From assembly GCA_010093605.1 (NCBI GenBank), contig MU004186.1:203765-267764 (forward strand): DNA of 64,000 nt, given 5' to 3'. Below are positions 1 to 23,868 of the stretch, piece by piece. The notes under the pieces are model-generated. The model was not told the DNA's origin, did no database searches, and saw only the letters and a list, made by a program, of their open reading frames with translations. This DNA comes from Lophium mytilinum. Its lineage: Eukaryota. Each line of letters starts with the position of its first letter. Positions within the stretch are counted from its first letter, which is position 1. The position numbers and the translations under genes were made by a program.

Positions 1-2571
1 CAACTAAACTCGTTTTGAGAATATCATGCTAAGAAAAGGTTTTTGTGAATGGATGATAGTAGCTTTGGTTACCTCATTTTTTCACTCTCTGTTTTATTTT
101 AATCCATTCATGAAGCGCTTAATGGCCATCATGTTTGGGCCCATGGCTCAAAATTGGATACAACTCCATTCAAGCCTCTTACTCGCCTCTGTCGATGACG
201 GAATGCCGCCGTCTGAGGCGCTCCAGCTCATTGAAAATATCACAACGTGATGTGAAACTCCACACGTCATGAATAGGCTTCCCTGCGAGCTAATATCATT
301 CACGCTGTCCGTACCACTCCGCTCGTTTTGAGACTTCAGCACAATTCCCGCGTCAGACAACTTGAAAAACTATTGCCATCAACACCTGATTTCAGTGGCA
401 CGTAACTTGAGATTATGATACATAGAATGGACCGAATTAGATCTCGGATACGCCATAGACTCCGCTGGAAAGATACAATAGTGAGAGTTTGGGCACTCCC
501 TGCAACTGCTTGGAGCATCCCGACAGACTCTAGAAACTCCGGATACGATGTAAAGATCGACCCGATGAATATTATACTACCCTTTGACTAATCAGAGACA
601 TGCTGCCTAGGGCACTCCCTACAGTAGTGTCGATAGAGCAAGAGTGCACTCTCGCACGACGAGGTCTGGTAAGCCACATTCCAACTAACGCCGTTAGGTC
701 GAGTATTTCGAATCGTGGCTATTGTTCTCGATATCGTTCGTCTTGCCATCTATCTTGGCCATGACACTTCTGGCCGTCTTCGAGAACGGGACGTGCAGGC
801 TTTCTGACGGACGCCTGTTTATAAGTTTGGGGACACTTGTAAACTTAAACCAATCAAAGTCCTATGGTCTAGTGGTATGACGTTCGCCTCAGCCTTTGCG
901 CCTACTACCTGCCGCGTTGAGGGGAGTACGTCTAGCAATATCTTCTCGAGAGCCGTGCAGCAGGATTTTTGATGTGATAAAACCAAGAGATGCAATAACG
1001 AAGCAGCATTTTAAAGCGCCCAATATTTGCAAGGAACTCAAATTGAAAATTACTGTATCTAGATGAAACATACACTATTAATCGTCTCTTCTTAGCGCTG
1101 CTGAGAAAGCTGTGTGATGGCGTGTATCATGAATTGATTAGCTACCCCGTTGATTCGAAGGTATTCTATGTAGAATACTTGGGTTGGGTACCGGGCGCAG
1201 AAGGTTTTGAGATCCCCACTGAACCATTCCCCGTCAACACCAAGAACCCATAACCATCTCACGACCCGGGCGCGCAACTCCCAGACCAGCAGAGAGGCTG
1301 AGACTCTCGCCAAAGCTCTGGAGTCAAGTTGGCAAAGAGAGAAAAGGGCACTTTGATTGAAATAGAATTTAGTTCTGTGAAGTTGTTCAAGGTAACTCCT
1401 CTTAGTTCTAGGCGGTCCTCCTCTTCCAGCTTAGCGTGTGATTGGGGCGGGGTCATTACAAAGTAGCGTCCCAAATGTCGTTACCAACAACACAACATCC
1501 CTTCTTCGGACCTCCACAAACTTGCCACTACTCTATCACAACGCCAACCAAAACGGATTACTACGTTGCGATACATCAGCTTTTATTTCCGGTGACTCCG
1601 ACAACACTCCGACGACGTGCAGGGATTTCGACGAGCTCGTGCACGCTGTCGTAGACGTTACCGAGCGCCACCACCCACCATCTTCAAAAATGTATAGCTT
1701 CCTCTACATCACTACATCTCGACCTAGGTGCAAATTGCTGGAAGAAGTAAAACTTGTCGAACTGCGGGGCTGGCCATTAGGCCGAGCCTTGGTGGTAGAA
1801 GCCCACCCTGTCACCCAATGCATATTATCAAGTCTGGCCAGGAGTCGATCGGTGACGCGGCTCAATGAAGCATCTGCCCCTGGCTTCGAGCCCAGAACGG
1901 TAATCTGGCCTGCAAGCCCCTCCTGATGCAGCTCGCAGTTGTCTCCAGGAGGAGCTACGGGACGGGCCTTGCGGCTGTGATTGGCGGGAGTGTTTGTCGT
2001 GTCTTGCTTAGAAGTTGGCGCCGCCGGTGTTACCGATTTTCAAAGCTACGTACGAAAAGGATTATCGAAGTTCGAGGCCTCTTTGGCAGCTGCCACAAAC
2101 CAGTAAGTTACAAGCCCCTGGAGTATCCATGGCTCGTGCAGAACTGACAGCAAGCAAGACACATGGATGCTCGCATATGGAGGAGGTCCCTACGGCCCTC
2201 TGAGACAACGTCACGTGGTTATCTATTCAATAGCGTCTGTGGCTGATAGTCGTTGAATGAGGTTATGCTGTAGAGTACGGCTGAAGTCCGAGACAAGGCG
2301 CGTTCTACTGCAAGCGAGCAACATGCAACCAGGACCTAAAATCCCATGCTAATGTCGAGTTGTGAACGCCAGCAAAGACGGCTCATAACTTACGCAAGCC
2401 ACATACTCGACGCAACGCCTTGTCCGAGCACGCCTGCCGCCGTTCGCTTGCGTTCTTCCCTCATGAGAGGTATAAATTCATGTTCGCATCTCCTCACATT
2501 TCAGAAGTTGAATCATTTGCAGCTGCTGCGCGGACCCTACTTGGCACGCCACTGTAGCCAATCACAACAGC

Positions 2572-5500
2572 ATGGCTTCCAACACTGCTCAGATCAAAAC
2601 CCTCATCTCGGTGCTGGGAAGCGCAAGTGTCCTCGATGCGGACAGATGGGTCGAGACTATCAGCAGCGCCTTTCCAGACCTGGGATCATTCGCATCTTTG
2701 AAGAAGCACATCGACAACGGCGGGCCGAAGCCGATAAAGTACGATGGTTTCGTCAATGCCATCCGCGACGACTCTGCGCAAGACCAAAATATGTCGCTGC
2801 TTGCGCTGGCCTCTGTTGGTAAATCGCTCTTCCAATTCAACGACCAGGGCGAGCCTTATGGTTTTCGTAAAGGGACGAACAAAGTGAGTACACTGCAAAC
2901 CTTACGCAACTGACATCAGAGACTAATACACAAACAATAGGATCGATGTCAGGATGCCATTCAGGACTCGCTGAGCACCCTACTTCCACTGTTACTTCGA
3001 GTACATGTCGACGAAGCTATCAAGAAGCACAATGAGATTATACAGCAAACTAAACCAGACCCACTGGGCGACAAACCCGTGCCGTTGACTTCTATTCATT
3101 CGTACATTGATGACGACGACTTTCTAGATGAGTTCAGTCAAACCATACTCTCTGAGAGTAAGAACACGGCAGTTCCTGCGTGCTTGAAAACATTGCTGAA
3201 TCATCTCTAGCATTCGTTCAGAACGAACAGTTCTTCCAAGATCAGAACAAAACAGCGTCGTCTACCAACTCATGGATGAATGCACTCTTTGTCTATAGTT
3301 ACCTTCGCCGAAAAGGCCAGAGTCCAGCGGCACACCAGCAGCCAGGACGGTTCAATGGCAACACATTCCCGAAAGTAGATGATGCCCGAAATCGCCTTTC
3401 TACGCTCCAAACATGGCTAGATGCGACGACTGCTGCATCTGAGGGCGCGACTTACTCTACGATCCTTCGTAACCTGGCGTCTGCTGATCGAAACGGTCAA
3501 AAAGATTTGAGCCTCCTCAAGGATAAGAGCGCCTTCTTGAAGACCATACTCGACACAGCTCCTTTAACCGGTCTCTATCTGCCTCCGCATGAGTTCGATG
3601 TTACCACGCTCTCCACAGCGACATTCTTGCTCGTACGCTTACCAGCCTGGTCTCTTGACATCGGGCGACCACTTGACCTGGATTTGACACTTGGTGAAGC
3701 GAGCCAGAACTTCATGCGCGGTTTGACACAACGCTGGAACAGTTACGTTGAAAACAGCTTGAAGTCTACGTTGTCTACAGCCTTGGAAAAGTACGCATCT
3801 TCTACATCTGCATTTAGCGTCCGAGGTAGAAATATCAAGTATCCGGTGACGTTTGAGATTCGAGAGTATGGAACAGACATCGTTGAAGACGTCACACGGC
3901 TTAGTAGCGAGACTGGAACCCAATACTTTTCACTCCAAAAAAACGATCGTCTGCTCTACGTGGAGGGCAATACCGACGTTTCAGGCGGCGAATTCTTTTC
4001 ATGGGATTCTCCGCCGCAGCGACCTCTTTTGCCAGACGATGCCAGAGTGATGCTGTTGAAAGGAGGTGTTTTGGGCCCCAGACCAGAAGGAACAAACTAC
4101 TCCGGTGCAGGTTGTTTCATCGAAGGCACTATGGTCTGGACGTCTCTGGGAGAATTGCCGATAGAAGACCTTCGGGAAAATGATCGGATCCTGACAGCTG
4201 CCACATCAGGGGAATTCGGAGTCAAGTCAGATGAGGTAGTGGCCAATCCGACGGGCGGCCGCGCAATCTTTTGGGGCTTCAACCAAGACGATGTCTTTTT
4301 CACCGCAGGCCATGTCTTCCACACCACAACGGGTCACAGAGCAATTGATCCTGTAGCAGCGAAACGTGAGAATCCCTGGCTTGAAGTCGGCAAGCTACGT
4401 GCAGGACATACACTCTACAGGACCAAGGACGGAGAGTCTTATGAGCTCATCACAATTAAGCGACTGCATAGCCAAAGCAAGTTATGTGACCATGTTTGGG
4501 GGGTACATCTGCGCGAGGGCCTGAGAAACTACCACGCAAACGGGTATTTAGTCCATCTGAACTACCCCGAGATAACGGTGAAATCCATCGCAGACATCAT
4601 CAAGACTTTGTCGGCGGACCAGACTGTGGCCATCATGGGAGCCATCAAGGAGCTAAAGCCGGTTTTCGAAAGATTTGGCGCTGGAACTGTGGAGCAGCTA
4701 CTGGAGCGAGAATTGTCGGACGACGAGTTCCTAAAGAGTGCGAGGCACAAGCCTCAAGAAAACTTCGCTCCTCAGCCTCTATGTTTCCAGTCACGGAGCT
4801 TCGATCTCGATCCCTACAAAGAAGGGCTAGAGCTTCCCGAGGGGTACTGGCTCCCGGAAGTAGATGCTTTGGATGGCGTCCTATATGTTAATGGCGAATC
4901 CATTGAACGCTCAAAAATCTATGCGCGGGGCTTCTCGTGGTCGCGAAACTTGAAGGAAGGCTTGTGGGAGCACGGAATGTGCTCCTTTGGTCACGACAAA
5001 CAGCTGATCGCCGGAGATGGACTGGTTTGGATTGATACAAACTCGAACCCCTCCAAGATGTCCTCTCTTGTAGTCCATTTCATTGCATCGTCAACAGCAC
5101 TTCGCGAACAGTACACAACACTTCGTGCTGATGGCATGGTCGCCTCCAGAATGGTCGCCCAGGAGCCCGTGATTTTAAGGCCCAGGCTTACCGCAATCAA
5201 GCTCGACGAGAATACATCGGAGACTGAGAAGCTGTTGTTATCCAAGGATGACACTACAGAGTGGTTTGCTCCTGCACAGACTCTTCTTGCGAAGGAGAAG
5301 CTCGCCGATCAGGTGGAAGGCCGTACACCGCGAGGCATCGAAGAAGTCACAGAGAAACACGACTTGACTTGGGCTCTGAGCTATGACAGGAGCCCATACG
5401 ACGAGAATGAGGATCCTCGCAACGCTTTGTCATACCTAAAAGTCACCAGAGTATACAAGAGTGAGCCTGGAGCACCCCCGACAGTCTCTATCAGGATTCC

Positions 5501-8500
5501 TTTCCTCGATCGACTCGCAGAGGCTCGCCAAACAGCCACGGGTAGTGACAGTAAGGTAACGTTCTACACTTCGGGCGTAACTACGACACAGGACCATAAG
5601 CAGGACATCTGGATCAAAATCTCGAACGGTGAAGCGATAGCTCTTGCGGCTGATGACAACGTGGACGAAGACGGATATGTCAAGTCTTACACTGACCTGA
5701 CGTTCAAGAACTCCGGCTTGAACGACAAGCTGCCCTTCTTGTTCAGCTCGGCAACATTGCGAGTCCACAACATCGAAAACACTCTCAAGGGTCGAATTGC
5801 CGAATACGACGAGAGTATGAAGGAGAACATCGGACAACAGCATTGGATCGTCGGACAGCCTGTGAAAGCTGAACCTACAGAAGCCGTCACCAGGGAAGGA
5901 AGCCAAAGCCCTGCGGTACTATCGCCAGCTCAGCCCGCTCAACCAACCAAACCTTCGTCAGCCGATCCACTGAAGAGTCTGATCAACCTCGGTCGCGGCC
6001 TGGGTGTGGATGGTGAGCTGGTCAAGAAGACCTCCCAGGACTACATCTATAAAGCTATGTTGTTCCACATGGACGACAAAGATCGCGATAACTTTACCCG
6101 AGAGGCAAAGCCACGCACGACAGGAATTGGCGCATTGCCTTCCGGACTGGCGAGCGACTTGGACGAGAACCTACGCGACTGGCTTAAGAAAACGTACTCA
6201 GTCGCATACGTCGCCAACATGATGTCTCAACAGTCCGAGGGAGACCAAGCGAAGATGAACACAAAATTTACAGAGCCGGACAAAAAGCGGCTACGCTATT
6301 TCTGGCAAGGCCGTGGACCAGGCTGTCTATCCCGCAGCAATGAGTACTCACAGTTGAACAGCATTGCTACTACTATAGCGTTCCGCAGTCTCTATCCAGA
6401 CATCATGACTTATGTCACTGATAGCGATGCAGAAGATGTGCTTGACGAGAACAAGAAGTCGTTGTCACAACTACGGGGTGGCCGGAAGTGGGCCTATAGG
6501 TACTTCCATGCGATGACTGTCCAGAACTGGGTGAGCCAGAACGCAGAACAAATTGGCTTCCATGAGTCCACAGTAAGATCTAGGCCTCTCCTACTTTCAT
6601 AGCGCCTGTAGTGTTAATTTGCGGGTCTACAGAACTTGAATCCTCTCGAGTTTCATTGCACTATACTCTCAGCGCTCTGGATAGAGCCAGTCGGCGCCAG
6701 TATAGACGGCACGGGCCTCGCCAAGCTCTTGACGGAGATGGTGCATCGCCAGGTCAAAGACAATACCCTCTTCGCATATAAACTCATGGTTACCGGCAAA
6801 GATCTGGCAACTGGTATGGATGACTTCATGGGATCGCTGATTGACTTACTCATGGACGAATCGATGTCCAAGGCAGCTGGTATAAATCCAGGCATCCGTC
6901 AGAAGCTACTCGACGACATGAACATACTCATTGACAGAGAAAAGATCATTGCTGAGAAGGTGCAGAAGGAGAATGTGTAAGTTCTTGAGCGGCACATTCC
7001 CATTGAGTATGACTGCATGAGTTCACAGCGCGCTAACCATAACACAGCAAAGCATGGAACAAGGCAGCTGCCACGTCTGTGAAGGCCTCGATGTCTGCTT
7101 TGCTTGCAATCAAGGAGGGTAAAGACTACACCTTGAACGGCGCCAAGTCCATACTAGAATTCATTCGCAAGCGCAAAACAGAGCCCCCTAAGGGCGAGAC
7201 CGGAATCGAACTTCAACCCATAGGCCAGAAACCTCCAGAGGTTCTACCAGAAGTAGGAGAGGCTGCTTCTAAAGTTTCTGCCGGTGCCAAAGCTCTCGCT
7301 GTGGCCGGCCTGCTGTTCAGTGTCGCTGCGGTAAGATTTCTACGTGGAGACTGTAGCTAAACTCATGAGCCGACGTAACTGATTGAAATACAGACTGTTT
7401 GGTACGTCGTTCAGACGTGGGATACCTGGAAGCGTATAGGAGACCGAGACATGGGCCATCTTGAGCGAACGGAGCTTGTTGCGACTGGACTGCAGGCTCT
7501 CGGTGGCTTGGCTTTCAACGCATATCGTTCAGTGCAGCTCTTCAAGTTTGGTTTCGAAGGGCCTCCTAAAGGAGCTTCCTCAGCTCTGGTCCAAGAGGCC
7601 GAGCACGCCGCGGCCGGGGTTTTTGAGGACGAAGTCAAAAGGCGCCAATCTTGGCTCAACCCACAAAACGAGAAACTCGCGGGCAATTCGGTCTTGCAGA
7701 AAAGCAGTGCGACCGCACCAATGAAGCTAGCCGAAGACACTTCGAAGGCGGCCAGTGTCAACGAGCAGGTCCTACCCAAGAAGCCATCGAAATGGGTGAC
7801 GATCAAGGGCAAGTTCAAGATGCAGTTCGGTGTACTTGAAACTTCATTGCGCGCATTCGCTTGTGCCATCGCAATCGTTCTTATCGTGGTCTCCATCATA
7901 TCCACAATCCAGAGTTGGAATGACAAGGGGCCGCTGGAGAAATGGATGGCTGTCATCGGCATTATCATCTCGATTGTCTCAACTCTCTTCGAGATCGCTG
8001 CACTGTTTTGTGCAGTCTCGCCGTACTTGACGGTCGGGATTATCGTCATCGGGCTCATTTTCCAGGTCGTCTGCTACTTCACACAGAAAAAGAAAGAGCC
8101 CGAGGACACACCGGCTCAAACTTGGTACAAAAACACCTGGACCCCGTTCAAGGAACTGCTTCCAACGCCGCCTGCCACTCGCTTCAAGTGGACAGTCACC
8201 CCAGAGGGTGGCAAAGTCGGCGACGAAACGACGATATCAGTCGTTGGCACAGCGGCGGCTCCGGTGCCGAACACGCTCAAGAACTTGTCAAAAATCGACT
8301 TCAATTTCACAATCAGCGGTACCGATGGCGCGGGACTCCTCAACACAAGCAGCTTGACTCAGGTGACGACTGCCTCTCCAGGGACCAACGAAGCGACAGT
8401 CATATTTCCCGAGTCGTACGCATCATACACTACCCACTCGATACTGGACACTTCGGCTTCACAGTCTAAACTGCGTACATATACCGCCAGCTTTGGGCTC

Positions 8501-8776
8501 CGCGATGCTGGCCAGCTCTGGGCACAAGATCAGTACAAGAATAACATGCCGTTCTTGGAAAAATGGCTAGCAACGGGCACAGAGATCAAGTTCGTATTTA
8601 GAGCAAAAGTGAATAAGAGGATGAGAAGACCGGAAGGTGCGAAGAACGAGGATGCTGGCGTGGTCCCGGCGTGGGGCAAGTATCGGTTCACAGTGCAGGA
8701 ACACTACACGGACGATACTGGGTCGGTCCCGGAGCAGATTGTTGAAGAGGAGCTGGTCTTTGAAAAGCGGCAGTAG
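2572..8776 (+). CDS. Large (~1966 aa) Hint-domain (hedgehog/intein-like) protein with C-terminal membrane helices; function unknown
   Basis: Five track ORFs plus one short unlisted exon join in frame through five GT-AG introns: exons 2572-2883, 2941-3157, 3211-6572, 6633-6976, 7048-7330 and 7394-8776 (5901 nt, divisible by 3). Hint motifs are GAG|CFIEGT (4113), FFTAGH (block B TxxH) and NYHANGYLVHLN (to 4562). Several hydrophobic segments lie at ~7290-8080. Confidence 0.85.
4113..4562 (+). other. Hint domain (~150 aa, residues ~478-627 of the modelled protein)
   Basis: Block A CFIEGTMVWT...PIEDLRENDRIL, block B TAGH and block F/G VWGVHL...NYHANGYLVHLN. No homing-endonuclease insert. Confidence 0.85.
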
Positions 8777-9152
8777 GCCATGCTGCTGTCGCATTATTGT
8801 CCCTGACGACCGGGTACGCCGAGGAGAGGTTAGACTTAGACTCCGCCGCTGAACTTATGAATCGAGCCGTGTGGCTTCAAGGTTGCACGTAGTGCGATTT
8901 GGGATGTGATTGCCATCAGCTCGTTGGAATCGGAACTTGCCCACATAGAAGCCGGTGAAATGAACCGTGCAATCTTCAAAGATATATTGAAATAAGAACC
9001 ATTTCTGTACAATTTGGGTGATCCTCAATCCTGCATCATCAGTCGTCAATGTTTTGATACCCGTGACTTCGCTTTAAGAAGAAAGCCGTCCTCCTTCTAT
9101 CAATCTTTTCCATCTCTTAATTCTGTGCCAGGCCCTCGTCTTCTTCCATCTC

Positions 9153-12100
9153 CTAGGTTTCTTCCATTTCTTGATCTTCGTCCATAGCCTCCTGAGCGTC
9201 TTCAAACTCCGATTCTGATGCCTCACTCTCAACCACCGCAACACCGCCCTCCATATCCGTATCCTCACCTTCCTCCAAGATCTTCACAGCCCACCAAGCC
9301 GCCTCCGTCTCCGCATTCAGCCTCTTCAAGCCCCCCACTACACCCCCAATCTCCCTTCCACCAACCTCAACTTGGCAATAATACCTTCCCTGATCCCCAG
9401 TATCCACACGCTTATACACCACGGTATCACTAACCGCCATATGACCCAGCCGCTCCTTCGGATGCAAGCAATCAACACTATCTCTCAGCACCCGCTCTAA
9501 GCAGTCCATAATCCCCATCTTCCTGATGAACCCCTCGCAGGCCAAGATGTCGCCGTGGCTGTCGATATATATAGCGCCAAGCATGCTCTCCACGATGTCG
9601 GAGAAGAATTTCTCGGCTTCTGTCCGCGCGAAGAGGTACCATGGGTATTTGCAGTCTTCCCGCAATGCGCTGAGAACAGCGTCGCGAGAGGCCTTATGAC
9701 GTATCAGTGCTGCCTTTTGGAGCTGAGGCGTCTGCGGTGACGAGTGACGTAGGTACTGCCAGAGCGCTCTTTGGACGATGGAAGGCTCCTCCGGACGACG
9801 CGCATTCGTGATAGGGTCGATCGTGATGTTAGCTTGTTCTTCCGGGATAGTGTTCTCGAAGGACATGAAGGCGAGGAAGGCGGCGTTTACCATAGCTGAT
9901 CGGATGGAGTGCATCGTTTCGTGGCTCAATTCCGGATTGTGCGCGAACACGTGGTTTGAGATGATGTAGTCGAGCACGGCGTCGCCGAGGAACTCGAGAC
10001 GTTGGTACGAAGAGGATGCGATTTCGGGTGGTCCGACAAAGGACGGATGGGTGAGCGCTTCCAGCATCAAATGCTTCTTCGTGAAAGTGTAGCCAGTGAT
10101 CGAGTCAACTACCGCTAAGTGGCGAGGTAGAGGCTCTTTCGGAACGGCGTCGAAGAGCACTTGATTAGACTCTTCAAGAGGCTTCCAGTCTTCCGTTGGT
10201 AGGAGGGTACGCAGACAAGAAAGGGCGTTCGGTAAACCTCCTACCACGTAGCTTGCCCCTATCAACGACTCCATGACGTCGGCGATTAGTTTCGAGGACC
10301 GCTCAACCTTCTTAGAGCTCCCCTCCACCTGACTGGAGGTAACGTCTGCCTCATACGGCGGCTTCCATTTAGACCCGGTGAAGCCTTTGGTGATGATGAA
10401 GCGCTCGAGGCCTAGCTGCATCGTAGCCCGAGCCAAGAATCCATTGGAAGTCGTGCGGCCCTTTTCTGCGGTCAAATAACCTTCTGGCCACATTAAATGA
10501 GATGCCATGAGGTTTATAGAGGTGCATAACTTCAGGATGCAGTCGCCAAGAAACTCCAGCCGTTGGTAGTCTGGTTCATTTGTAGAAGAAGCCGTGATAG
10601 CCCTCACGATAATGCTCAAGTCTGTGGGATCAAAAGATACGGGTGCTAGAATAGTAGTGCGGAGTCGCTCAGCCAGCATATGCACCTCATACCTGTTAAG
10701 CAGGGAGGGTATGAAGAGTGCAAAGATAGATACAGAGGCTGGAAGTCGATGGACAATGCAGTCTTTGGCCTCCAGTTTCAACAAAGAGGAATATGCTTCG
10801 TTAATCTGATCCCGTGGGTTTTCTGGGTGCAGAAAGTCTCTCCGTTTTGGAAATCGAGAGACTGTAAGGTGCAGTTCTGTATCGTTATTCTCAGTCATGA
10901 TGTCTCGTAGGATGAATAGGCGGCTATTCCCATGAATTTGAATCAATCCAGCCTCTTGCCCTTGATGCTGACTTAAAAAAGTCAAAGCATCCACCGTTGG
11001 GCTATCTTTCTCGGTCATCTGAAGCCAGTGACGCAGCTGAGTGGCTTTTGGAGAGCTCCCATCTTCCACAGGAACGAATAATGCCACAAAATCATGACGT
11101 TCTGCAGGCATTCGAGATCCAAAGATGGAGTGAAGAAGACGGAAAGTGGTTGCCTTGAAGAATTCAATTTCCTTCTCCTGATACAACGCCGACTTGAGGA
11201 GCTTTGTCGAGATAACATAACGTTTCGTCACATTCCAGTAAAGAATGACTTCCGGAATCTGCGGCAGTGGAAATTGAGTAATAACGATGAGTTTTACAGA
11301 TTGCTCGTCAGCGGATGATAGGCAGACGAGAGTTCTGTAGTAGGTCGTGACGTTTACGTCCGAGTTTCTGCTCTCTTTGAGCGACTCCGCTCCTTCGGTG
11401 TTCTCCGAGGTGCTCGCCCGCTGGGACAGAACCCATGACCATGGATTTACCATGGGCTTTACTAGAATTAGTGAAGGCCGTTTGTCCGGTATGTTGAACT
11501 GCGGCGTGCCTTCAGGCTCTTGACCAAGTGGGAGAAGGTTGTCGTTGATCAGTCCAGCTGCATACAAAGCTTTGTATGCTTGTAAGCAAGCGTCTCGTTT
11601 CGCGTTCCTTTCGGTTAGCCAGCATTTAGAACTGCTTGAAGACCGTACTGAGGCGTCTACCGATGCTGGGAGTGTGACATGGGCTCTTATCATGTCGTAC
11701 TCGTCATTCTTGAAGGAAAATTGAGGTCGCATGTCAATGCTAGAGTTGCTTTGGAGTACTGCGCAGAAATGGTGCAGATGCTGCGATGCATTGTGAAGAT
11801 CCACGAGGGCACTGAGAGTAGGTCAGCCGTAGAACTGAAGAGTGACCGAGTCTTGGTTTTGATAAGATGGAGCAAAAGCCGAGGGAACCCTCACCTAGTA
11901 GTAGCGATTCGCAAGGCTAAGTCTGAGTTTTCTTCTATCGTTTCCATTTCTTCCGCAGCTTTTACATTCCGAAGATCGTTCATATAATCTTCCTTCATCT
12001 TTTCTTCAAGGCTTTCCCAAGGATTCGAGGCTGTTCCCACTGAAAGAACACTAGGTGTGAGTATTATGTATTTTGACGCTTCTTTCCGAGCTCGTCCCCG

Positions 12101-13835
12101 ACGTTGAACGAATGCCTTCAAGTTTTTAGGGGGGTCGAAGTCAATGACAAGGTGGCAGCTAGATATATCGATGCCCTCCTCTAGCACGCTCGTAGCGATG
12201 ATGAGATTTCTATCGCCCTCTCTGAAATCTTCTAGGACTTGTTGTTGGAGACGGGGCTCCGCAAGATCTGCCAAATTCATTTTCCTTTTCGAGCTTGTCG
12301 ATGTACCTACGAAAGTTCCAATCCGAAACACATCCCTGGTCCGGGGATGTTCGGAGAGTAGCTGACCGAGCACCGCAACCGTTGCTCTTTGCTCGGCGAA
12401 TATGATCCCTCTGAAATTGGTGCTGGATTGTGCGACTAGGGCGTCGATTAAAGCTTGCACTTTAGGTGTACAGTACCGTCCGATAGGAGAAGGGACAGGA
12501 GTAGACCCTGCTACAGCCTTTTTGAGTATTGCATGTAGATACTGCTTTTCAGTGTCGGAGTATGGGGTAAGCAGCGGATCTGAGCTTTCTATGAGCTTCT
12601 CGAACTTTAAAGTGCATTTCCGCAAGAACCAGTCAGCAGACCAAGGACCGAGCGCGTTGAGTATATCGGCTATTTTGGCCGCAGTGCTGTTCAGTTGTTT
12701 TTGACAGTACGTGTCAAGTCTCACTAACGTCTTTTCCAGCCTTCGCCTAGCTTGTGGGTCGCCAGCTTCCATCTGCTCTACTAGCTGACGTACACAAGGG
12801 TCTTGCATGATATCGAGGCTTCCGATAATTTTGCAAAGCCGTTGAAACGAATCTGGCTTGGCGAATTCCTTTGAGTCAAGGGCACAATAGGTGACGGTGG
12901 AAAGTTGCGGCTTGTGGACGAACCGAATCAACTCCGAGCGGTGAAGTTTGGGTGTCTTCGTAGTTGCGTCGAGATTCTTCTCAATGGTCCTGATGCTGTT
13001 TAGTATTTCCGGTGTTGTCGGCTAGTGTATTGAACGTACTCGAGACCATCAGCTTTGGCATTGATGACAGGGCTGGCGCTGAGCCCCAAGATTCTGGGTA
13101 TTGAATCAGAGACCGAAGAGAATTTGCAAGGTAAATAGAATTTCTGCATGATCTGATTTGCTGGATGATCCTTAGTACAGTGATGAGCTAGAAAATGTGA
13201 GTAAATTTGTTATGGGTCCCTAAATGTTCAGGAAGAATACCTTCATCGAATATCAAAAGGCTCAATCGGTTCAGCTTGACAAACCCATGGGAAAGAGCAT
13301 CAAGTAAAACCGCATGCGTTGAGATCACGATTCTGACGTTTTCGAGCACATCGTTCCATATGCTTTGATCTGTCCAACGATCAACGTCGTCTTCGCCGCT
13401 TAAGAATTGAATGCCAAAGCCTGGGAGATTGGAGCAAAATACGTCGTATTGCTGGTGGCATAACGCTTTTGTTGGAGCGAGGAACCATACAATCTAACAT
13501 AAGATGGGTTGCATTAGCAGAACAACCATACATGAGAGTCGGGAATGAGCTAGTACCTGGCTAGGGTCTGATGTTTCGAGTGCTGCTTCTGTTCGGGCGA
13601 GCGCTCTTATCGAATAAGCAAAGCCCTCGCATCATAAACGACCATATGACTGTTACATGTGTGTCTTGCCACTGCCAGTGTCCATGGCAACTATGATGTT
13701 CTCCTTGAGGCTGGCCTCGACCATCTCTGTCTGGTACGAGCGCAGACGAAAGGGCTCATTGGGTAGACCCGCCACGACGGAAGTTCCGTCTGAAGTATTC
13801 GTACGGGTTTCCATGACGGGATTTTTAGAAGACAT
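9153..13835 (-). CDS. dcl2: Dicer-like protein 2 (DExD helicase, helicase C, dicer dimerisation, 2x RNase III, dsRBD)
   Basis: Motifs LRSYQTEM...[21 protein letters not shown] and FVQRRGRAR. Two RNase III signatures, [13 protein letters not shown] and [14 protein letters not shown]-terminal HPKERLGH...AETEAA dsRBD. About five introns; start ATG at 13835 or 13814. Confidence 0.93.
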
Positions 13836-14356: not shown

Positions 14357-15363
14357 CTACAGATTCGTCAGATAGTCCTCGACTTCCTCCGGGCTCAGCT
14401 TCCTGAATCTGGGCCCTTGGGCGCCCTCAACACCTTCATATCCCAGAAGCTTGTCCTCCGGTGGGCCCACAATGCCAATCTCAACCGTCTCGCCGTTCAT
14501 CTCTCCTTCTATCGTCTCTTTCAGTGTAAGAAGGGCGATGTGAATCGCATCTTCCAACTCCAGGCCCTCGGTGTACCTCTTTTCCAAGAACGTCTTTGCA
14601 CTAGTAGCGCTCTTTCCGATAGCCGTTGCCTTCCAAGGGAAATAGCTTCCGCTAGGATCAACTTGATACAAACTAGGTCCACCCTTGAGAATGCCACCAG
14701 TCTTGCCCGTCGCCCGCTTCTTCTCTGCGTCCGTCTCTCCAGAATCCTGCACCTCCGACTCCGGCTCGATGCCATCATCCCATCCAGCGATCAGCAGACT
14801 GACGCCGTACGGCCGTACACCACCTTGCTGGGTGGCCTCTTGCATAACCCTAGCAACATCCTGCACTAGTATCCTCGTGGGCGGGTATTCGTTGTAGACG
14901 CGCTTGTAGCCGGTATGCGAGACTTTGCGGGCTTTGTCGACAAGAATGCGGTAGTCTGGACCCATGCCGGAGTAGACCATGCCAACGTTGGGTGTTATGA
15001 GGCTAATTTTCGAGGAGGATTGGGAGTCGATGAGTGGCGATGACGACTTCTTCTCGGTCGCAAGCACGATGCCATTGGTTGCTTGGGATCGTCAACAGCA
15101 TGCTCGAGCTATTAGAAGGGGTCCATACCTTTGATCCCCAAGGATGTCACTCCTTGGTTGACGGCGTTCAACGCATATTCTACAACACGACTGTTAGGCA
15201 AAGCTCAAGAAGTTAGACGAAGGCCACGAAACAGGAGCGCACCTATTTGTACCAGCTTTCCACTGTGAGGTCTGTCAGCAGGATGCGCAGCAGCAGAGCT
15301 TCGCGGGGGAGGTGTTTACCTGGGCGAGAAAGTGGTGAGCGAGAAAGAGTACCGATCGGCCAT
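14357..15363 (-). CDS. PRE8: 20S proteasome subunit alpha type-2
   Basis: N-terminus [14 protein letters not shown] at 15363; [53 protein letters not shown]. Three short 5' introns. Confidence 0.96.
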
Positions 15364-15842
15364 AGTGGGTAGATCGTCGAAGAAGAAGACTCGGGGCTAT
15401 GTAGAAGTTATAGCAGATGCCAGGTACGCAGGCCTTGAGGTTGTGAGAGGAGTTGTGATGTGGACGAGAGGGATAGACGGCCTCCACAGAGCTCAGCTAG
15501 GCAAGCTCGCAGACGACGCGGTCGCTTGTGCCAAGACATTCACCGGGCCGATGCTCGTCCGAACAACCTGTCTTCTCGCGCGACATTTTACAGCAGCTTT
15601 ACCCACACTTCATGCGTCCACCTCTCCTTACCCTCCGCCATATGAGGCCCCCCCTGCCAGCACTTCCTGCCGCATGGCTTGAGCTTAGAGATTTCGCAGG
15701 AAGAGCACCTGAGACCACTAATCACGCTTGCAATATTGGTTCTGAAGGCCTCATCACTCTTGTCTCTTAACACACCCTTTGTCCGCCGTATTGAAGCCTG
15801 GGGCGTCCTGATCTTCTTTTTCCTAGCTATCAGTCTACCATC

Positions 15843-16889
15843 ATGTCTGCGAATGAACCCCAAGCCATGCCGGGGTGGTATTGGCCAGACGATTTACCGA
15901 AAGCAGAGTACGAGCCGTCCTCTGGGACCCAGTCCAGCACTCCACAAAGCAACAGTCAGCCTCAAAACGAGCGGCCACGGCGGAGATTCTGGCCTCCAAG
16001 ACAGTGCCGTATCTGCCTTGAGACGGTACAGCCAACGTACCATACAGCGCCCGAACATCTACCCGGTATTTTCCAATCCGGGCCGTCCGTAACGTACGAG
16101 TCAGAAGAAGGTCGTCTCCTCCGACCCTGCAAATGTAAAGGCTCGTCCAAGTACGTTCATGAGGGATGTCTCCAGGCCTGGCGGCACTCTGATCCTTCCT
16201 ACGGACGCCGCAATTACTGGCAGTGCCCAACCTGCGGCTTTCGCTACCGCCTAGCACGGCTAGGGTGGGGTCGCAGCCTTGCTAGCAAAAGTGAGCACCT
16301 CTACCAACTCATTACTGACTCTATTTGCTGACCCTGCTGTCTTTCAAAAGCCGCCCAGATTTCTTTGACGGTTGGCATTCTTATTTTAGCTGTCTTCTTT
16401 CTAGGATTTGTTGCAGACCCGATCATCAATCTTTACCTTGACCCGTACAGTTACTTCTCACCCTTCTCCAGCAGCCAGCCTGAATACTACTATGAGCCTG
16501 AGGAGAAGTCGTCTTGGGTTGAACATTTCCTGAAAGGCTTCACGTCGATGGGCGTCCTTGGATTCCTGAAAGTCTTGTTGTCCAACCCCTTCTCGTACTT
16601 CCGTCTTGGAGGGGGCGGCACTCGAGGCAGGGCCACAGGACGAGACAGATATGAGCAAGTTAGTTGGATCGTTATCCTCGTTGGGGTTTCCACTTTCCTC
16701 TTTGTAAGCCACCTCCTGTCCCAATTCGCAGAGCTTCATCTAACGGGACCTTAGGCTGTGTACAAAGGCGTCCGAGCATGGAGCCGTAGGACCCTAGAAA
16801 AGGCTGGAGAGCAAGTCATGGATGTTCAGCCTGACGACGACGATGATGAGGATGACCAGGTCCCACCTGCTGAAACTGAAACGTTATGA
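15843..16889 (+). CDS. RING-CH (RINGv/MARCH-type) membrane E3 ubiquitin ligase-like protein
   Basis: CRIC...PCKCKGSSKYVHEGCLQAW...CPTC (C4HC3) followed by TM segments. Exons 15843-16290, 16351-16703 and 16755-16889. Confidence 0.9.
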
Positions 16890-20826: not shown

Positions 20827-21804
20827 TTACATATCTTTCAACTGATCAAGCGCATCTCCAATTTCTTGTTCTACGGTACTAGCAAGATGAGCAAATTCCG
20901 CTACCTTTTGTTAGCATACGTCAGATAAGAGTATAACGGCAAGGTACCATCTGGAGTTCCATCCAAAGCAATTGTATGCATCTCGCCGTATGGGTATAGC
21001 GTTGCCGGACTCGTCTTCGCAGTAGACTGGCGGGGAAGCTGCTGAGGGATTACTAGGCGGGGACAGACGGGCGATGAGTCTGAAGACTAGGAGGTTAGCA
21101 ACAACCAGACGGCTAGATGGCGGACAGTTACCAAGGGCGAAGTGTTGGGTATCGTGATAATACATCAACCTAAGCCTACCCGGGGGCTTCGGTAGAGCCG
21201 ATGAGCTGCTCGTGAGACAGTTGCCAACCGGTAAAGCATACCCAACTTCTGTGGGAATCAACACATACGCCTCTCCAGGGTCGCTAACTCCAATAGAGAT
21301 ATCTTTCGTGACGAGTGTGTCGTCTGGGCCGAGATCCGTGAACTCGGCCGTCGCGGTGTGGCAAGCTCTCGTAGTTGCGGCGTAGCAGGGCCGCTCAATC
21401 GCGGTGGACGTCTGCTGATAGAATTGACCCAGTTGCTCGGCTGTCCACGCGTTGGTGCATACCGCAACTTGGGCGTTTGCTAGGGATCCATTCACAGTAT
21501 TAGATTGTAAGGGAGCCGATTGGAGTTTGTACCCGTTGATTCTCAAGAACATGTATGCCGCTAGAAGTGCTGTGCGTTTATTTCCATCTTGGAACGCGTG
21601 ATTTTTCATGATTTTTTCGGAGAGTTTTGCGGCAAGCTGGAACATATTCTGTTGAGTGGTGTAGTAATTGATGTTTATGGGCGACTGCACTGCTGATTCC
21701 AACATAGACGGCTGTGTGGGCTGGGCATTCATGATTATGGATCTGTGAAGACGTATAACCTGAGCGGCGGTCAGGAAGCGGAACTTCGCGACGTCGAAGG
21801 TCAT
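20827..21804 (-). CDS. Doc/Fic (death-on-curing) domain protein fused to a fungal domain of unknown function (~292 aa)
   Basis: LESAVQSP...HAFQDGNKRTA Doc motif at 21568-21600. Modelled exons 21804-21132, 21079-20948 and 20900-20827; both introns have GT donors, GCTAAC branch points and YAG acceptors. Confidence 0.82.
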
Positions 21805-22869
21805 TGCCAACTCAGTTCGTTGTCGGATCGATGGCTGAGTAAAAGGGCGAATTTGCGGACCGTTCGATATGGTCTGCACACCTGTTACTAAAAAGTAGCT
21901 TTTTATGAGCGTGTGCTAACTACCAAGGCTTTAAAACGCGTAAATCCCGAGGCTGAGATGAGTAACTTCTCATTCATGGGATGGAGGCTGGTGCTGTCTT
22001 GTTCGTTGAGTCAAGGTTCCACATCGACTTTAGACAAGTCTTTACAGAAATGCCTCCCGCAGACAGCTTTTAAGCGCCTTGTGGATGCGGCGCGGAGTTT
22101 GAAACTGGAGCTCTTCTATTTTTAACAAATGATTCAAATTTCAATCATTCTGGAGGAGGTACCGCTGACGAGGGAACAACGAGTTTTTGAGTTATATAAG
22201 ATGCAGAAAAGGCGTTGCGGGTATTTTGAGATGGAATTGCCTACTTCGTATACGGTGGCTCATAACACTAGGCCTTGGAAGGGAAGCTTTTCCTTAGAAG
22301 ATTCAGAATAAATTAGCAGTTGCACTAGCAGTAGGCTTTCGAGAAAGGTTGATACGTGCTGTTGAATATGATAACTGGCAGATTTACTCAAGACTCAGGG
22401 GGCCCAGGAATGGGAGCGGAGACATTGGACCAGTCAAGGTTCGTTGAACAAAGATTGGCAGTCTCTATCTAAGGTTTCCCGAAGAGTTGCCAAGCGCGTC
22501 CGAATCCCCTTTTGCCAATTCATAAATTCAGAACATGATCGTTGATTTGTAGACTACCACTTATTGTTGAACGAAGCTTGGTAGTGGAGTTGTGAGAGAT
22601 TTCTAGCTCGCTACGGCGTACTAGAATACGCAAGGGGATGTTGTGGCGCGCTTCTAGTGTGCCGTACTAAAACTTCAGATGACCTCGTCGGACAGGCGCC
22701 AGCGAATTATCAAGGCGCCAAACGACGCGTCTGAAACCTTTGGCACGCGCCGGGAGTTCACCTGATCGAGTGCAATAGTATTCAAAGCCCTCGGTGTCGC
22801 CTACGAAATCTCCGCTGAACAAAGCCTCCCCAGCTCTACCAAACTCTCTCCACTGCAACTTCAACGGCC

Positions 22870-23868
22870 ATGTCGAAAGCAACACTCGCTATGGGTGCTG
22901 CTGCCGGCGCAGCAGCAACAGCAGCTATATACTCTCTGTTCAACAACTCCCATCCTGAGCCCCCCATTACCACGACCACCACCACGACCGTCTCGACACC
23001 CTCCCGAACCGGCCCTCCAGCTCCCTCCCCAATCACTCCTGTAGCCATCCGATCACCTCCCCTCGTTGACCCGAACGGCCTCTTCCAATACGGCTTCCCA
23101 GGACCAGTAGCTGACCTTAATCCAACTGCTTCCCTCACTTCTGCCTTCGACCGCCGCACCCGCAATCCCTTCTGGGTCGCCGAACACATTACACCCTTGT
23201 CACTATCAACACACAATGGAGACCGCAAGCACAGCGTGTTCGTGGAGGACGCCTCGATCCCCGAGATGTTCCGTGCAAAACTGAAGGACTACTTTCGGTC
23301 CGGCTACGACCGCGGGCACCAGGTCCCGGCCGCCGACGCGAAGTGGAGCCAGGAAGCCATGGATTCAACCTTCCTGCTCAGCAATATGTGCCCCCAGGTC
23401 GGTGACGGCTTCAACCGCGACTACTGGGCGCACTTTGAGGACTTCTGTCGCCGCTTGACCGGCCGCTATCCCAGCGTGCGCATTGTCACCGGCCCGTTAT
23501 ACCTGCCAAAGCGCGAAGCGGATGGCAAGTGGCGCGTCAGCTACGAGGTCATTGGAAACCCACCCAATGTGGCTGTACCGACGCACTTTTACAAAGTCAT
23601 ATTCGCAGAGGACGGGAGTGTAGGCGGTCAAGTGGCCCTGGGTGCGTTCGTGTTGCCGAACGCGGTGATTGCGAACGACAAGCCGCTCCAGGATTTTGAG
23701 GTCCCTTTGGAGGCAGTGGAGCGTGCGAGCGGGCTGGAGTTTGCGACCAAGTTGCCTGCGATGCGGCGGAAGAAGTTGTGTCAGGAGGTCAACTGCTCCA
23801 TCTTCGTGAAGGATTACAAGCAGCGACAGAAGACGTTTGCGGCTCAGAATCAGGGGGGCAGGCAATAA
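22870..23868 (+). CDS. NUC1: Mitochondrial DNA/RNA non-specific endonuclease (EndoG)
   Basis: FRSGYDRGHQVPAADAK (DRGH), LSNMCPQVGDGFNRDYWAHFE, VPTHFYKV. Intronless. Confidence 0.96.
   Translation: MSKATLAMGAAAGAAATAAIYSLFNNSHPEPPITTTTTTTVSTPSRTGPPAPSPITPVAIRSPPLVDPNGLFQYGFPGPVADLNPTASLTSAFDRRTRNPFWVAEHITPLSLSTHNGDRKHSVFVEDASIPEMFRAKLKDYFRSGYDRGHQVPAADAKWSQEAMDSTFLLSNMCPQVGDGFNRDYWAHFEDFCRRLTGRYPSVRIVTGPLYLPKREADGKWRVSYEVIGNPPNVAVPTHFYKVIFAEDGSVGGQVALGAFVLPNAVIANDKPLQDFEVPLEAVERASGLEFATKLPAMRRKKLCQEVNCSIFVKDYKQRQKTFAAQNQGGRQ

Follow-up and report, generated by a model that had tools for sequence, protein, structure and literature searches.

A predicted self-cleaving Hint-domain protein of Lophium mytilinum belongs to a fungal family with a two-gene counterpart in Clostridia

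Within the stretch of Lophium mytilinum DNA analyzed here (64,000 nucleotides of contig MU004186.1, assembly GCA_010093605.1, hereafter the window), positions 2572-8776 of the forward strand hold one six-exon gene for a large Hint-domain protein, with a coding sequence of 5901 nt that translates into 1966 amino acids with zero internal stops. The gene model was built from the forward-strand open reading frames (ORFs), taken from stop to stop, together with the sequence at their borders; all features of the gene lie on this strand. Exon 1 (2572-2883) opens with the ATG and codes for residues 1-104, exon 2 (2941-3157) for residues 105-176 plus one base, exon 3 (3211-6572) for residues 177-1297, exon 4 (6633-6976) for residues 1298-1411 plus two bases, exon 5 (7048-7330) continues up to residue 1506, and exon 6 (7394-8776) supplies residues 1507-1966 and the stop codon. 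The five coding introns measure 57, 53, 60, 71 and 63 nt, and every one is of the GT..AG type. An earlier note on this DNA had joined five ORFs into one spliced gene of ~1966 residues; the single gene and its length stand, but the coding segments are six, with five junctions. The model translation is identical letter by letter to P0078 ('hypothetical protein BU16DRAFT_525041 [Lophium mytilinum]', 1966 aa), and a word-based protein search with exon 6 returns this same protein as its sole match.

The stretch is covered by one public run (X1, its type guessed as RNA), in which a single contig of 11,778 nt covers positions 2400-9000 with 0 mismatches. The contig omits exactly the five coding introns and one further GT..AG intron of 53 nt in the 5' leader (2470-2522). 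Only spliced RNA can give a contig without introns; the exons are therefore transcribed together and connected in the way modeled, and all five junctions are confirmed. Once the leader intron is removed, an in-frame stop lies 52 codons upstream of the ATG at 2572, which is the first in-frame ATG past that stop, and because no in-frame ATG lies between them no signal peptide is concealed 5' of this start. The N-terminus itself (MASNTAQIKTLISVLG...), judged by eye, carries no hydrophobic signal, in agreement with the earlier claim that the protein lacks a signal peptide.

The Hint domain occupies residues 478-627 (4113-4562) and runs from Cys478, within the motif GCFIEG, through T541-x-x-H544 (T541-A-G-H544) to Asn627. 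In Pfam, the window protein matches Hint_2 (PF13403) at E 4.9e-4 and 20.9 bits, below the cut-off of 28.4, over profile positions 2-31 of 147. Among 27 full-length relatives, Hint_2 is found at E <= 0.01 in 20, only one of which passes the cut-off (P0048, 32.8 bits), and Pfam finds no further credible domain in the 27. Sequence searches of the PDB with exon 3 and with the fungal profile gave just a weak match to block A of a bacterial intein-like (BIL) domain (E 0.011), the remainder being noise (gp41, designed proteins). The AlphaFold2 (AF2) model of exon 3, computed from 76 aligned sequences, has a mean predicted local distance difference test score (pLDDT) of 75.7, which rises above 90 across exon-3 residues 301-450, that is, residues 478-627 of the protein. 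With this model, Foldseek finds Tetrahymena BIL2 at E 1.7e-6, and the matches listed at E <= 0.001 (ranks 1-24) are all 24 BIL domains, inteins or hedgehog proteins. The closest solved folds to residues 478-627 are BIL domains first, with inteins and hedgehog next, and the Foldseek and VIA-align fold searches agree in assigning the exon 3 model to the Hint fold. As judged from the predicted structure, residues 478-627 are a genuine Hint domain, which starts at Cys478 and has its catalytic motifs intact, as the earlier note had proposed.

Conservation was read from alignment A1 (76 rows, the fungal family), where counts out of 75 refer to the rows covering the column in question. Cys1 is present in 75/75 rows and the next position is Phe in 75/75, while the block-B Thr/Ser is found in 72/75 and the block-B His in 74/75. 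The residue before Cys1 is small (G, S, T, A or N) in 74 of the 75 rows (G 34, S 23, T 12, A 3, N 2, L 1). At its other end the domain closes with YHANGYLV-x-L-N-Y-P-E, in which Asn, Tyr and Pro each occur in 76/76 rows. The 17 bacterial ORF1 proteins described below show no variation at Gly-Cys, at the Ser and His of block B, or at Asn-Tyr-Pro. Counted from the ANG motif, Asn627 is displaced by one residue toward the C-terminus compared with the catalytic Asn of BIL2, and the positions in front of the invariant Asn hold H (34 rows), A (22), R (9) and others at -2 and L, V or M at -1; the shifted Asn together with the variable residue two before it makes this Hint domain atypical. The residue after the Asn is Tyr in 76/76 fungal-family and 17/17 bacterial rows, and this excludes classical protein splicing. 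We accordingly rejected identity as an intein, which requires Asn followed by Cys, Ser or Thr at +1.

Upstream of the Hint domain lies a family-specific, fast-evolving N-domain (residue 1 to ~430; 2572-3971, a span that includes introns), the modeled part of which (residues 178-430) is mostly helical, with low to moderate AF2 confidence. The N-domain has no Pfam match in the window protein or in the 27 relatives, and a search of the ESM Atlas with residues 1-477 gave no usable match. It is connected to the Hint domain by a disordered linker (3972-4112, residues 431-477; pLDDT < 50 over exon-3 residues 254-296) whose last residue, Gly477, is predicted to be scissile. In pairwise alignments, homology to the window protein starts at residues 457-480 in 59 of 77 relatives, begins before residue 400 in only 16/77 and extends past residue 1700 in 19/77, and the common onset marks a domain boundary at the predicted cut site. 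The same onset had suggested that N-domains might be swapped between members, a possibility also raised in the earlier note. This is refuted: single linkage at E <= 1e-3 connects 61 of 64 fungal N-domains, and an iterative profile gathers 15, then 58, then 63 and finally all 64, so that the 64 form one divergent family.

Immediately after the Hint domain comes a helical tail (4563-4751, residue 628 to ~690), which starts with YPEIT, is conserved in fungi and aligns with the C-terminus of bacterial ORF1. It is followed by a first small beta-barrel of 8 strands (4773-5099, residues 698-806), a stretch that is disordered in the AF2 model, a second beta-rich domain (5349-5870, residues 890-1063), and a helical domain (5979-6563, residues 1100-1294) that runs on into exons 4-5, holds the second conserved block of the family and is homologous to bacterial ORF2 from residue 439 onward. 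A hydrophobic helix of uncertain membrane status (7292-7411, residues 1494-1512, Kyte-Doolittle 2.11) spans intron 5; of the 17 other fungal relatives checked, only 10 have such a helix upstream of the main hydrophobic cluster. The cluster consists of three hydrophobic helices forming a putative membrane anchor (7844-8089, residues 1657-1738), aligns with the transmembrane (TM) cluster of bacterial ORF2 and is kept in 18/18 fungal and 2/2 bacterial proteins checked. The segment preceding it is strongly basic (6 K/R vs 1 D/E), a charge pattern that would fit a protein with most of its N-terminal part in the cytosol and, possibly, its tail outside. The protein ends in an immunoglobulin-like (Ig-like) beta-sandwich (8171-8773, residues 1766-1966), a generic fold of this kind with no counterpart in bacterial ORF2. 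The multiple hydrophobic helices and the beta-rich tail that had been noticed earlier are thus both borne out. Fold searches covered two models, those of exon 3 and exon 6, and the structural matches of the beta-barrels are at the level expected by chance for such folds. A search of the ESM Atlas with residues 628-1300 gave no usable match, and PADLOC and NCBIfam, run on fungal and bacterial proteins, returned nothing beyond sub-threshold TM or intein-N matches. In the post-Hint region of two relatives, P0039 and P0046 (aa 433-522), Pfam reports Sec66 at 20.7 and 22.6 bits against a cut-off of 22.1, and these matches are probably spurious.

The same module exists in bacteria as two genes. A pattern scan of one genome per prokaryotic species with the family motifs LVxLNYPEIT and RxGxRSYHAN led to three loci in Lachnospiraceae, including one in Sellimonas intestinalis; a pattern scan of viral contigs gave 49 matches, none of which is a relative of this family. 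The Sellimonas locus has two overlapping ORFs, ORF1 of 508 aa and ORF2 of 1064 aa. ORF1 consists of an N-domain of ~308 aa, Gly-Gly-Cys, the Hint domain, NYPEIT and a tail of ~50 aa, and ORF2 of beta-barrels, a helical domain and a TM cluster. Sellimonas ORF1 matches residues 465-678 of the window protein (BLASTP E 7e-23), and in hhalign the ORF1 family (17 sequences) matches the fungal family with a probability of 99.9% (E 1.6e-35), the match setting in ~50 residues before the Cys. For ORF2 the probability is 98.7% with a single sequence and 99.65% with a three-sequence profile (E 3.7e-25, 536 columns), and the match spans the fungal helical domain and continues through the TM cluster to the juxtamembrane motif. 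The first fungal barrel matches ORF2 residues 33-82 (probability 83%, E 8.9e-6), and hhalign finds no match of the second beta-rich domain to bacterial ORF2 (probability 0.5%). These homologies indicate that ORF1 and ORF2 are fused in colinear order in the fungal protein, with an Ig-like tail added, and they answer the question of bacterial relatives raised by the earlier note with a homologous gene pair in Clostridia.

We found 28 further loci in metagenomes, representing ~7 lineages with many near-identical copies. ORF2 directly follows ORF1 in 24/24 of the metagenome loci where ORF1 is typical and the sequence beyond it can be read; of the remaining four, two lie on contigs that are too short or broken, and two (L036 and L037) have a different architecture. 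The same direct order is seen at L001 and L002. The ORF1 family comprises ~20 clusters, all hypothetical and without a Pfam domain, the named ones coming from an Oscillospiraceae metagenome-assembled genome and from Abyssisolibacter, and ORF2 is present in 2/401 sampled genomes of the same bacterial family. No conserved third gene appears at the three bacterial genome loci and three metagenome loci scanned with Pfam. The contexts of the pairs differ and include MerR with an aldo-keto reductase and a C39 peptidase, HAD with a pseudouridine synthase, IS66 or DDE transposases, polysaccharide genes, and a hydrogenase. A complex prediction for bacterial ORF1 residues 296-508 with ORF2 residues 1-440 gave no call either way (score 0.00). 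In one gut-metagenome lineage (L024, 4471-5199), a CDI_toxin_EC869_like protein is encoded immediately before the ORF1-ORF2 pair, along with a number of small unknown ORFs; these genes may be a toxin/immunity islet, or their position may be a coincidence.

Bacteria also have two natural variants of the module. In G168, a single protein of 1146 aa has an ORF1-type N-domain at residues 18-232 (hidden Markov model E 2.3e-21; hhalign probability 97.7%, E 1.4e-12) joined straight to an ORF2-type body, with no Hint domain. An upstream ORF of 315 aa was considered as a possible ORF1 of G168, and comparison shows no relation. The Hint-less gene (L008, G168:C38) adjoins a DDE transposase, and downstream are an unknown ORF of 438 aa and then a 724-aa AAA_22 and GerE/LuxR regulator; these neighbors lie at 166-1188, 6625-7938 and 7954-10125. 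In L036 and L037, a protein of 1142-1156 aa lacks the N-domain, starting ~38 residues before the Hint domain and continuing via the tail into the ORF2 body, and has Gly at the position of Cys1. At L036 a full ORF1 just downstream keeps the Cys in an otherwise near-identical motif. The Cys is therefore lost where no N-domain remains to be released, while the Hint fold and tail are retained within the body. In our reading, the Hint domain is an optional cassette whose presence would render the joint between N-domain and body cleavable.

The search with exon 3 yielded 77 related proteins among 8000 candidates scored, and all of the named ones are fungal. Among them are proteins from Orbilia, Dactylellina, Fusarium, Trichoderma, Neonectria, Colletotrichum, Neurospora, Podospora, Triangularia and Microdochium, with further members in Clarireedia, Phaeosphaeria, Delitschia, Rhizodiscina, Sphaceloma, Xylographa, Exophiala, Aspergillus melleus, Galerina and Pluteus. 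The family is spread over Pezizomycotina and Agaricomycetes, with the gene pair in gut Clostridia; full-length members have 1600-1960 aa and are annotated solely as hypothetical or "Hint domain-containing". A HMMER search with exon 6 of 1.84 billion representatives gave 30 matches at E <= 0.001, consisting of family fragments and full-length relatives with no evident new architecture, as judged without a Pfam scan of these matches. Some species are present in two clades, as in Xylographa opegraphella and Fusarium oxysporum, and in the latter the sequences form large clusters at 90% identity (71 and 57 member sequences), with copies on megabase contigs. As far as clustering can show, these groups carry no sign of allorecognition-type polymorphism.

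We inferred a quick, unrooted maximum-likelihood tree from the Hint domain and tail with 92 rows (77 eukaryotic, 15 bacterial). All bacteria fall on one side of a branch with a Shimodaira-Hasegawa-like approximate likelihood ratio test (SH-aLRT) support of 100, and the window protein and P0001 (71% identical) adjoin the Orbilia and Dactylellina sequences with a support of 99. The direction of transfer is not readable from an unrooted tree, and the Hint and tail tree gives no sign of recent transfer. Proteins of 640-1390 aa (P0072-P0077, one from EukProt) form a divergent clade outside the main fungal clade, which holds the 72 other eukaryotic rows, including every fungal-named protein; three of them (P0072-P0074) have a more distant N-domain, and the clade may come from non-fungal eukaryotes.

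The resolution of a thioester formed by an N-to-S acyl shift is established Hint chemistry. We infer that the window protein is a precursor that would process itself in this way (self-cleavage as such had also been supposed in the earlier note), and we propose that self-cleavage at Gly477/Cys478 frees the N-domain from a membrane-anchored scaffold or transfers it, a reading of the sequence to which we give a probability of roughly 0.6. In this proposal, the ~1650 N-terminal residues would most likely be cytosolic and tethered by the C-terminal cluster of hydrophobic helices, and the BIL/hedgehog-type Hint domain (residues 478-627) would most likely carry out the N-to-S acyl shift at Gly477/Cys478. 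Resolution of the thioester would then detach the N-domain of ~52 kDa from all that follows it, namely the Hint domain with its helical tail, both beta-barrels, the helical domain, the TM cluster and the Ig-like tail. Because the fungal protein is a fused form of the Clostridia two-gene module, N-domain, Hint cassette and membrane body would act as one unit. Several observations weigh against this proposal. Pfam detects just the first ~30 residues of the Hint domain, and under its cut-off; the C-terminal His-Asn that is canonical for inteins and BIL domains is missing, the invariant Asn being displaced by one residue and the residue at -2 variable; AF2 confidence for the N-domain is low; the fungal and bacterial N-domains match in hhalign with a probability of 44% (E 2.4e-4), colinear over 271 columns; and the topology is read from hydropathy and charge counts. 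Where bacteria have the module as two genes, moreover, the N-domain is not tethered to the membrane protein, so that release from a membrane anchor cannot be the general purpose of the module.

Chiefly because cleavage in the split form could not free the N-domain from the membrane protein, we keep a variant of the proposal in which the reaction resembles that of hedgehog. The thioester at Gly477 would here be attacked by one particular nucleophile, whether a membrane lipid, a small molecule or a protein amine, the tail, barrels and membrane body would present this nucleophile, and the N-domain would gain a covalent adduct at its C-terminus. This seems possible, though unlikely. The conserved helical extension stands right after the Hint domain in fungi and bacteria, at the position of the hedgehog sterol-recognition region, and the partner module is predicted to lie in the membrane; cleavage alone would do little in the two-gene form, so that the chemistry at the C-terminus of the N-domain would be what matters. 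However, the Pfam, PADLOC and NCBIfam scans show no ligand, lipid-binding family or transferase signature, the barrel matches do not exceed chance, and Clostridia have no sterols, so that the nucleophile there must be something else. The fuller version of this idea, a hedgehog-like protein-ligation machine common to fungi and Clostridia in which the body supplies a lipid or other nucleophile and the N-domain becomes covalently lipidated or conjugated, strikes us as more doubtful. Double cleavage, also unlikely in our view, would add a second cut to the one at Cys478: Asn627 would cyclize and cut Asn627/Tyr628, so that the Hint domain is excised without ligation and the C-terminal body is freed as well, in the manner of BIL domains. 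Asn-Tyr-Pro is invariant in fungal-family and bacterial rows and is retained even in the Cys-less proteins of L036 and L037, and the nearest solved fold, BIL2, uses a C-terminal Asn (as inferred from the title of the entry, C1A-N143A). Yet the Asn lies one residue past its canonical position relative to ANG and has no conserved penultimate His, only ~50 residues follow it in bacteria, so that a cut would release little, and the motif may be purely structural.

The earlier note had suggested an autoproteolytically activated pore-former or toxin, acting in cell death, allorecognition or antagonism, with the post-Hint fragment as the membrane-active effector and an activation like that of gasdermin. 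We now consider this improbable: Pfam, PADLOC, NCBIfam and the lists from the exon 3 and exon 6 fold searches, which are dominated by Hint and generic folds, contain no known toxin, pore-forming or cell-death domain, including HeLo, gasdermin and HET. The hydrophobic helices are conserved, and the TM hairpin has weak, sub-threshold matches to the viroporin NS3 of Orbivirus (E 8.2e-4, 19.4 bits with the cut-off at 27) and to PycTM (E 0.0042), but such matches sit on hydrophobic segments and are probably compositional. The patchy distribution, the paralogues in several fungi, the rarity of the module in bacteria (2/401 sampled genomes) and its variable contexts, with transposases and once a CDI-toxin-like gene, are of the kind expected of such a system; against this, the N-domains are not swapped, the F. 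oxysporum copies form large 90%-identity clusters on megabase contigs, and there is no immunity-like partner or NLR among the neighbors in the window. It is equally hard to credit that the Hint domain is a structural adaptor with no cleavage in vivo. In L036 and L037 the Cys-less Hint domain is still complete in its fold and, together with the tail, joined to the body, which implies a role beyond catalysis, but Cys1 (75/75) and T/SxxH (72 and 74 of 75) are maintained across divergent fungi and are invariant in the 17 bacterial ORF1s, and loss of the Cys coincides precisely with the absence of a releasable N-domain.

Present classifications divide Hint domains into inteins, hedgehog-type (Hog) domains, BIL domains and Vint. 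In A-type BIL domains, the ANG motif is followed at a canonical distance by a C-terminal His-Asn. The family described here resembles BIL domains in having Cys1 after Gly or another small residue, a block-B His and an ANG motif near the C-terminus, and in having neither a homing endonuclease nor a +1 nucleophile. Weak profile matches link the bacterial ORF1 profile (A3) to BIL2 of a Tetrahymena BUBL protein (PDB 6tmm, 6y75; E 0.006) and the fungal profile (A1) to a BIL domain of Clostridium thermocellum (2lwy; E 0.011). It differs in that x-L-N-Y-P-E takes the place of the C-terminal His-Asn, with the Asn shifted by one residue, in the conserved helical tail and the body of ~1300 aa with TM helices after the Hint domain, and in its N-terminal cargo, a family-specific domain of 300-480 aa, whereas the cargo of BIL domains is a ubiquitin-like or secreted-protein module. 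With Hog proteins (PDB 1at0, 6tyy) it shares the order of cargo, Gly-Cys-Phe junction, Hint domain and helical extension, and cargo release by thioester chemistry would be expected in both. Unlike Hog, it is found in fungi and Clostridia, has no signal peptide, so that processing would be cytosolic, and has no Pfam match to the hedgehog-type Hint family, just the weak one to Hint_2. More than 1300 aa with TM helices follow downstream, as opposed to a sterol-recognition region of ~60 aa, and our conserved helical tail of ~60 aa has no detectable sequence relation to that region.

The family is also like Vint (PF14623; PDB 8r2c) in being a eukaryotic Hint protein of fungi that is neither intein nor Hog (Burglin 2008, PMC2362128). 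Bacterial ORF1 has a weak Vint match (E 4.5e-4, 20.5 bits against a 27-bit cut-off), but the structural match is poorer than to BIL domains or inteins, Pfam finds no VWA or Vwaint upstream in the window protein or the 27 relatives, and the flanking architecture is entirely different. The passages of Burglin 2008 used here cover fungal inteins, a Glomus Hog protein, Vint proteins and unclassified Hint-like ORFs, and do not describe the architecture of N-domain, Hint, tail and membrane body. In polymorphic toxins, according to Zhang et al. 2012 (PMC3482391), HINT is a toxin-releasing peptidase in a different layout, located just before a variable C-terminal toxin and accompanied by secretion or repeat modules (RHS, FilH). 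The likeness to these toxins lies in a predicted autoprocessing Hint domain inside a large multi-domain protein, and in a rare and patchy presence in bacteria, once beside a CDI-toxin-like gene. In our family, by contrast, the variable side is N-terminal and forms one single family, and fungi and Clostridia share a conserved, colinear post-Hint region. Pfam finds no toxin, RHS or secretion domain in the window protein, its relatives or the bacterial proteins, and none of the bacterial loci examined has the adjacent immunity gene that marks such toxins.

Full-text literature searches turned up no paper on the family or on six member locus tags, in line with the suggestion of the earlier note that it is undescribed. 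It would add a fifth architectural class of Hint proteins, common to fungi and Clostridia, in which a widespread and distinct arrangement joins N-domain, Hint, helical tail and membrane body. The four natural architectures (fused, split, Hint-less and Cys-less) can serve as controls for asking what cleavage is for. If a specific nucleophile does resolve the thioester, proteins would be lipidated or conjugated by a new route, and the first one driven by a Hint domain outside animal Hedgehog and ciliate BUBL proteins. Even plain self-cleavage would give a testable activity to dozens of "hypothetical proteins" of ~1800 aa in Fusarium, Trichoderma, Colletotrichum, Neurospora and other much-studied fungi.

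Among the neighbors in the window, Pfam identifies a Proteasome-domain ORF (14360-15091, reverse strand), a RINGv ORF (15795-16328, forward), a Fic/DOC ORF (20914-21915, reverse) and an Endonuclease_NS ORF (22819-23865, forward), none of which is an obvious partner of the Hint gene. A convergent Dicer-like gene lies on the reverse strand (9153-13021), with Dicer_dimer, two Ribonuclease_3, DSRM_2 and Helicase_C domains. The X1 contig that spans the Hint gene extends ~810 nt upstream of position 2400, which represents either a long leader or a merger with an upstream transcript. In the other direction it continues for ~4.7 kb beyond position 9000, and here it probably merges the convergent transcripts of the Hint and Dicer-like genes via their overlapping 3' ends.

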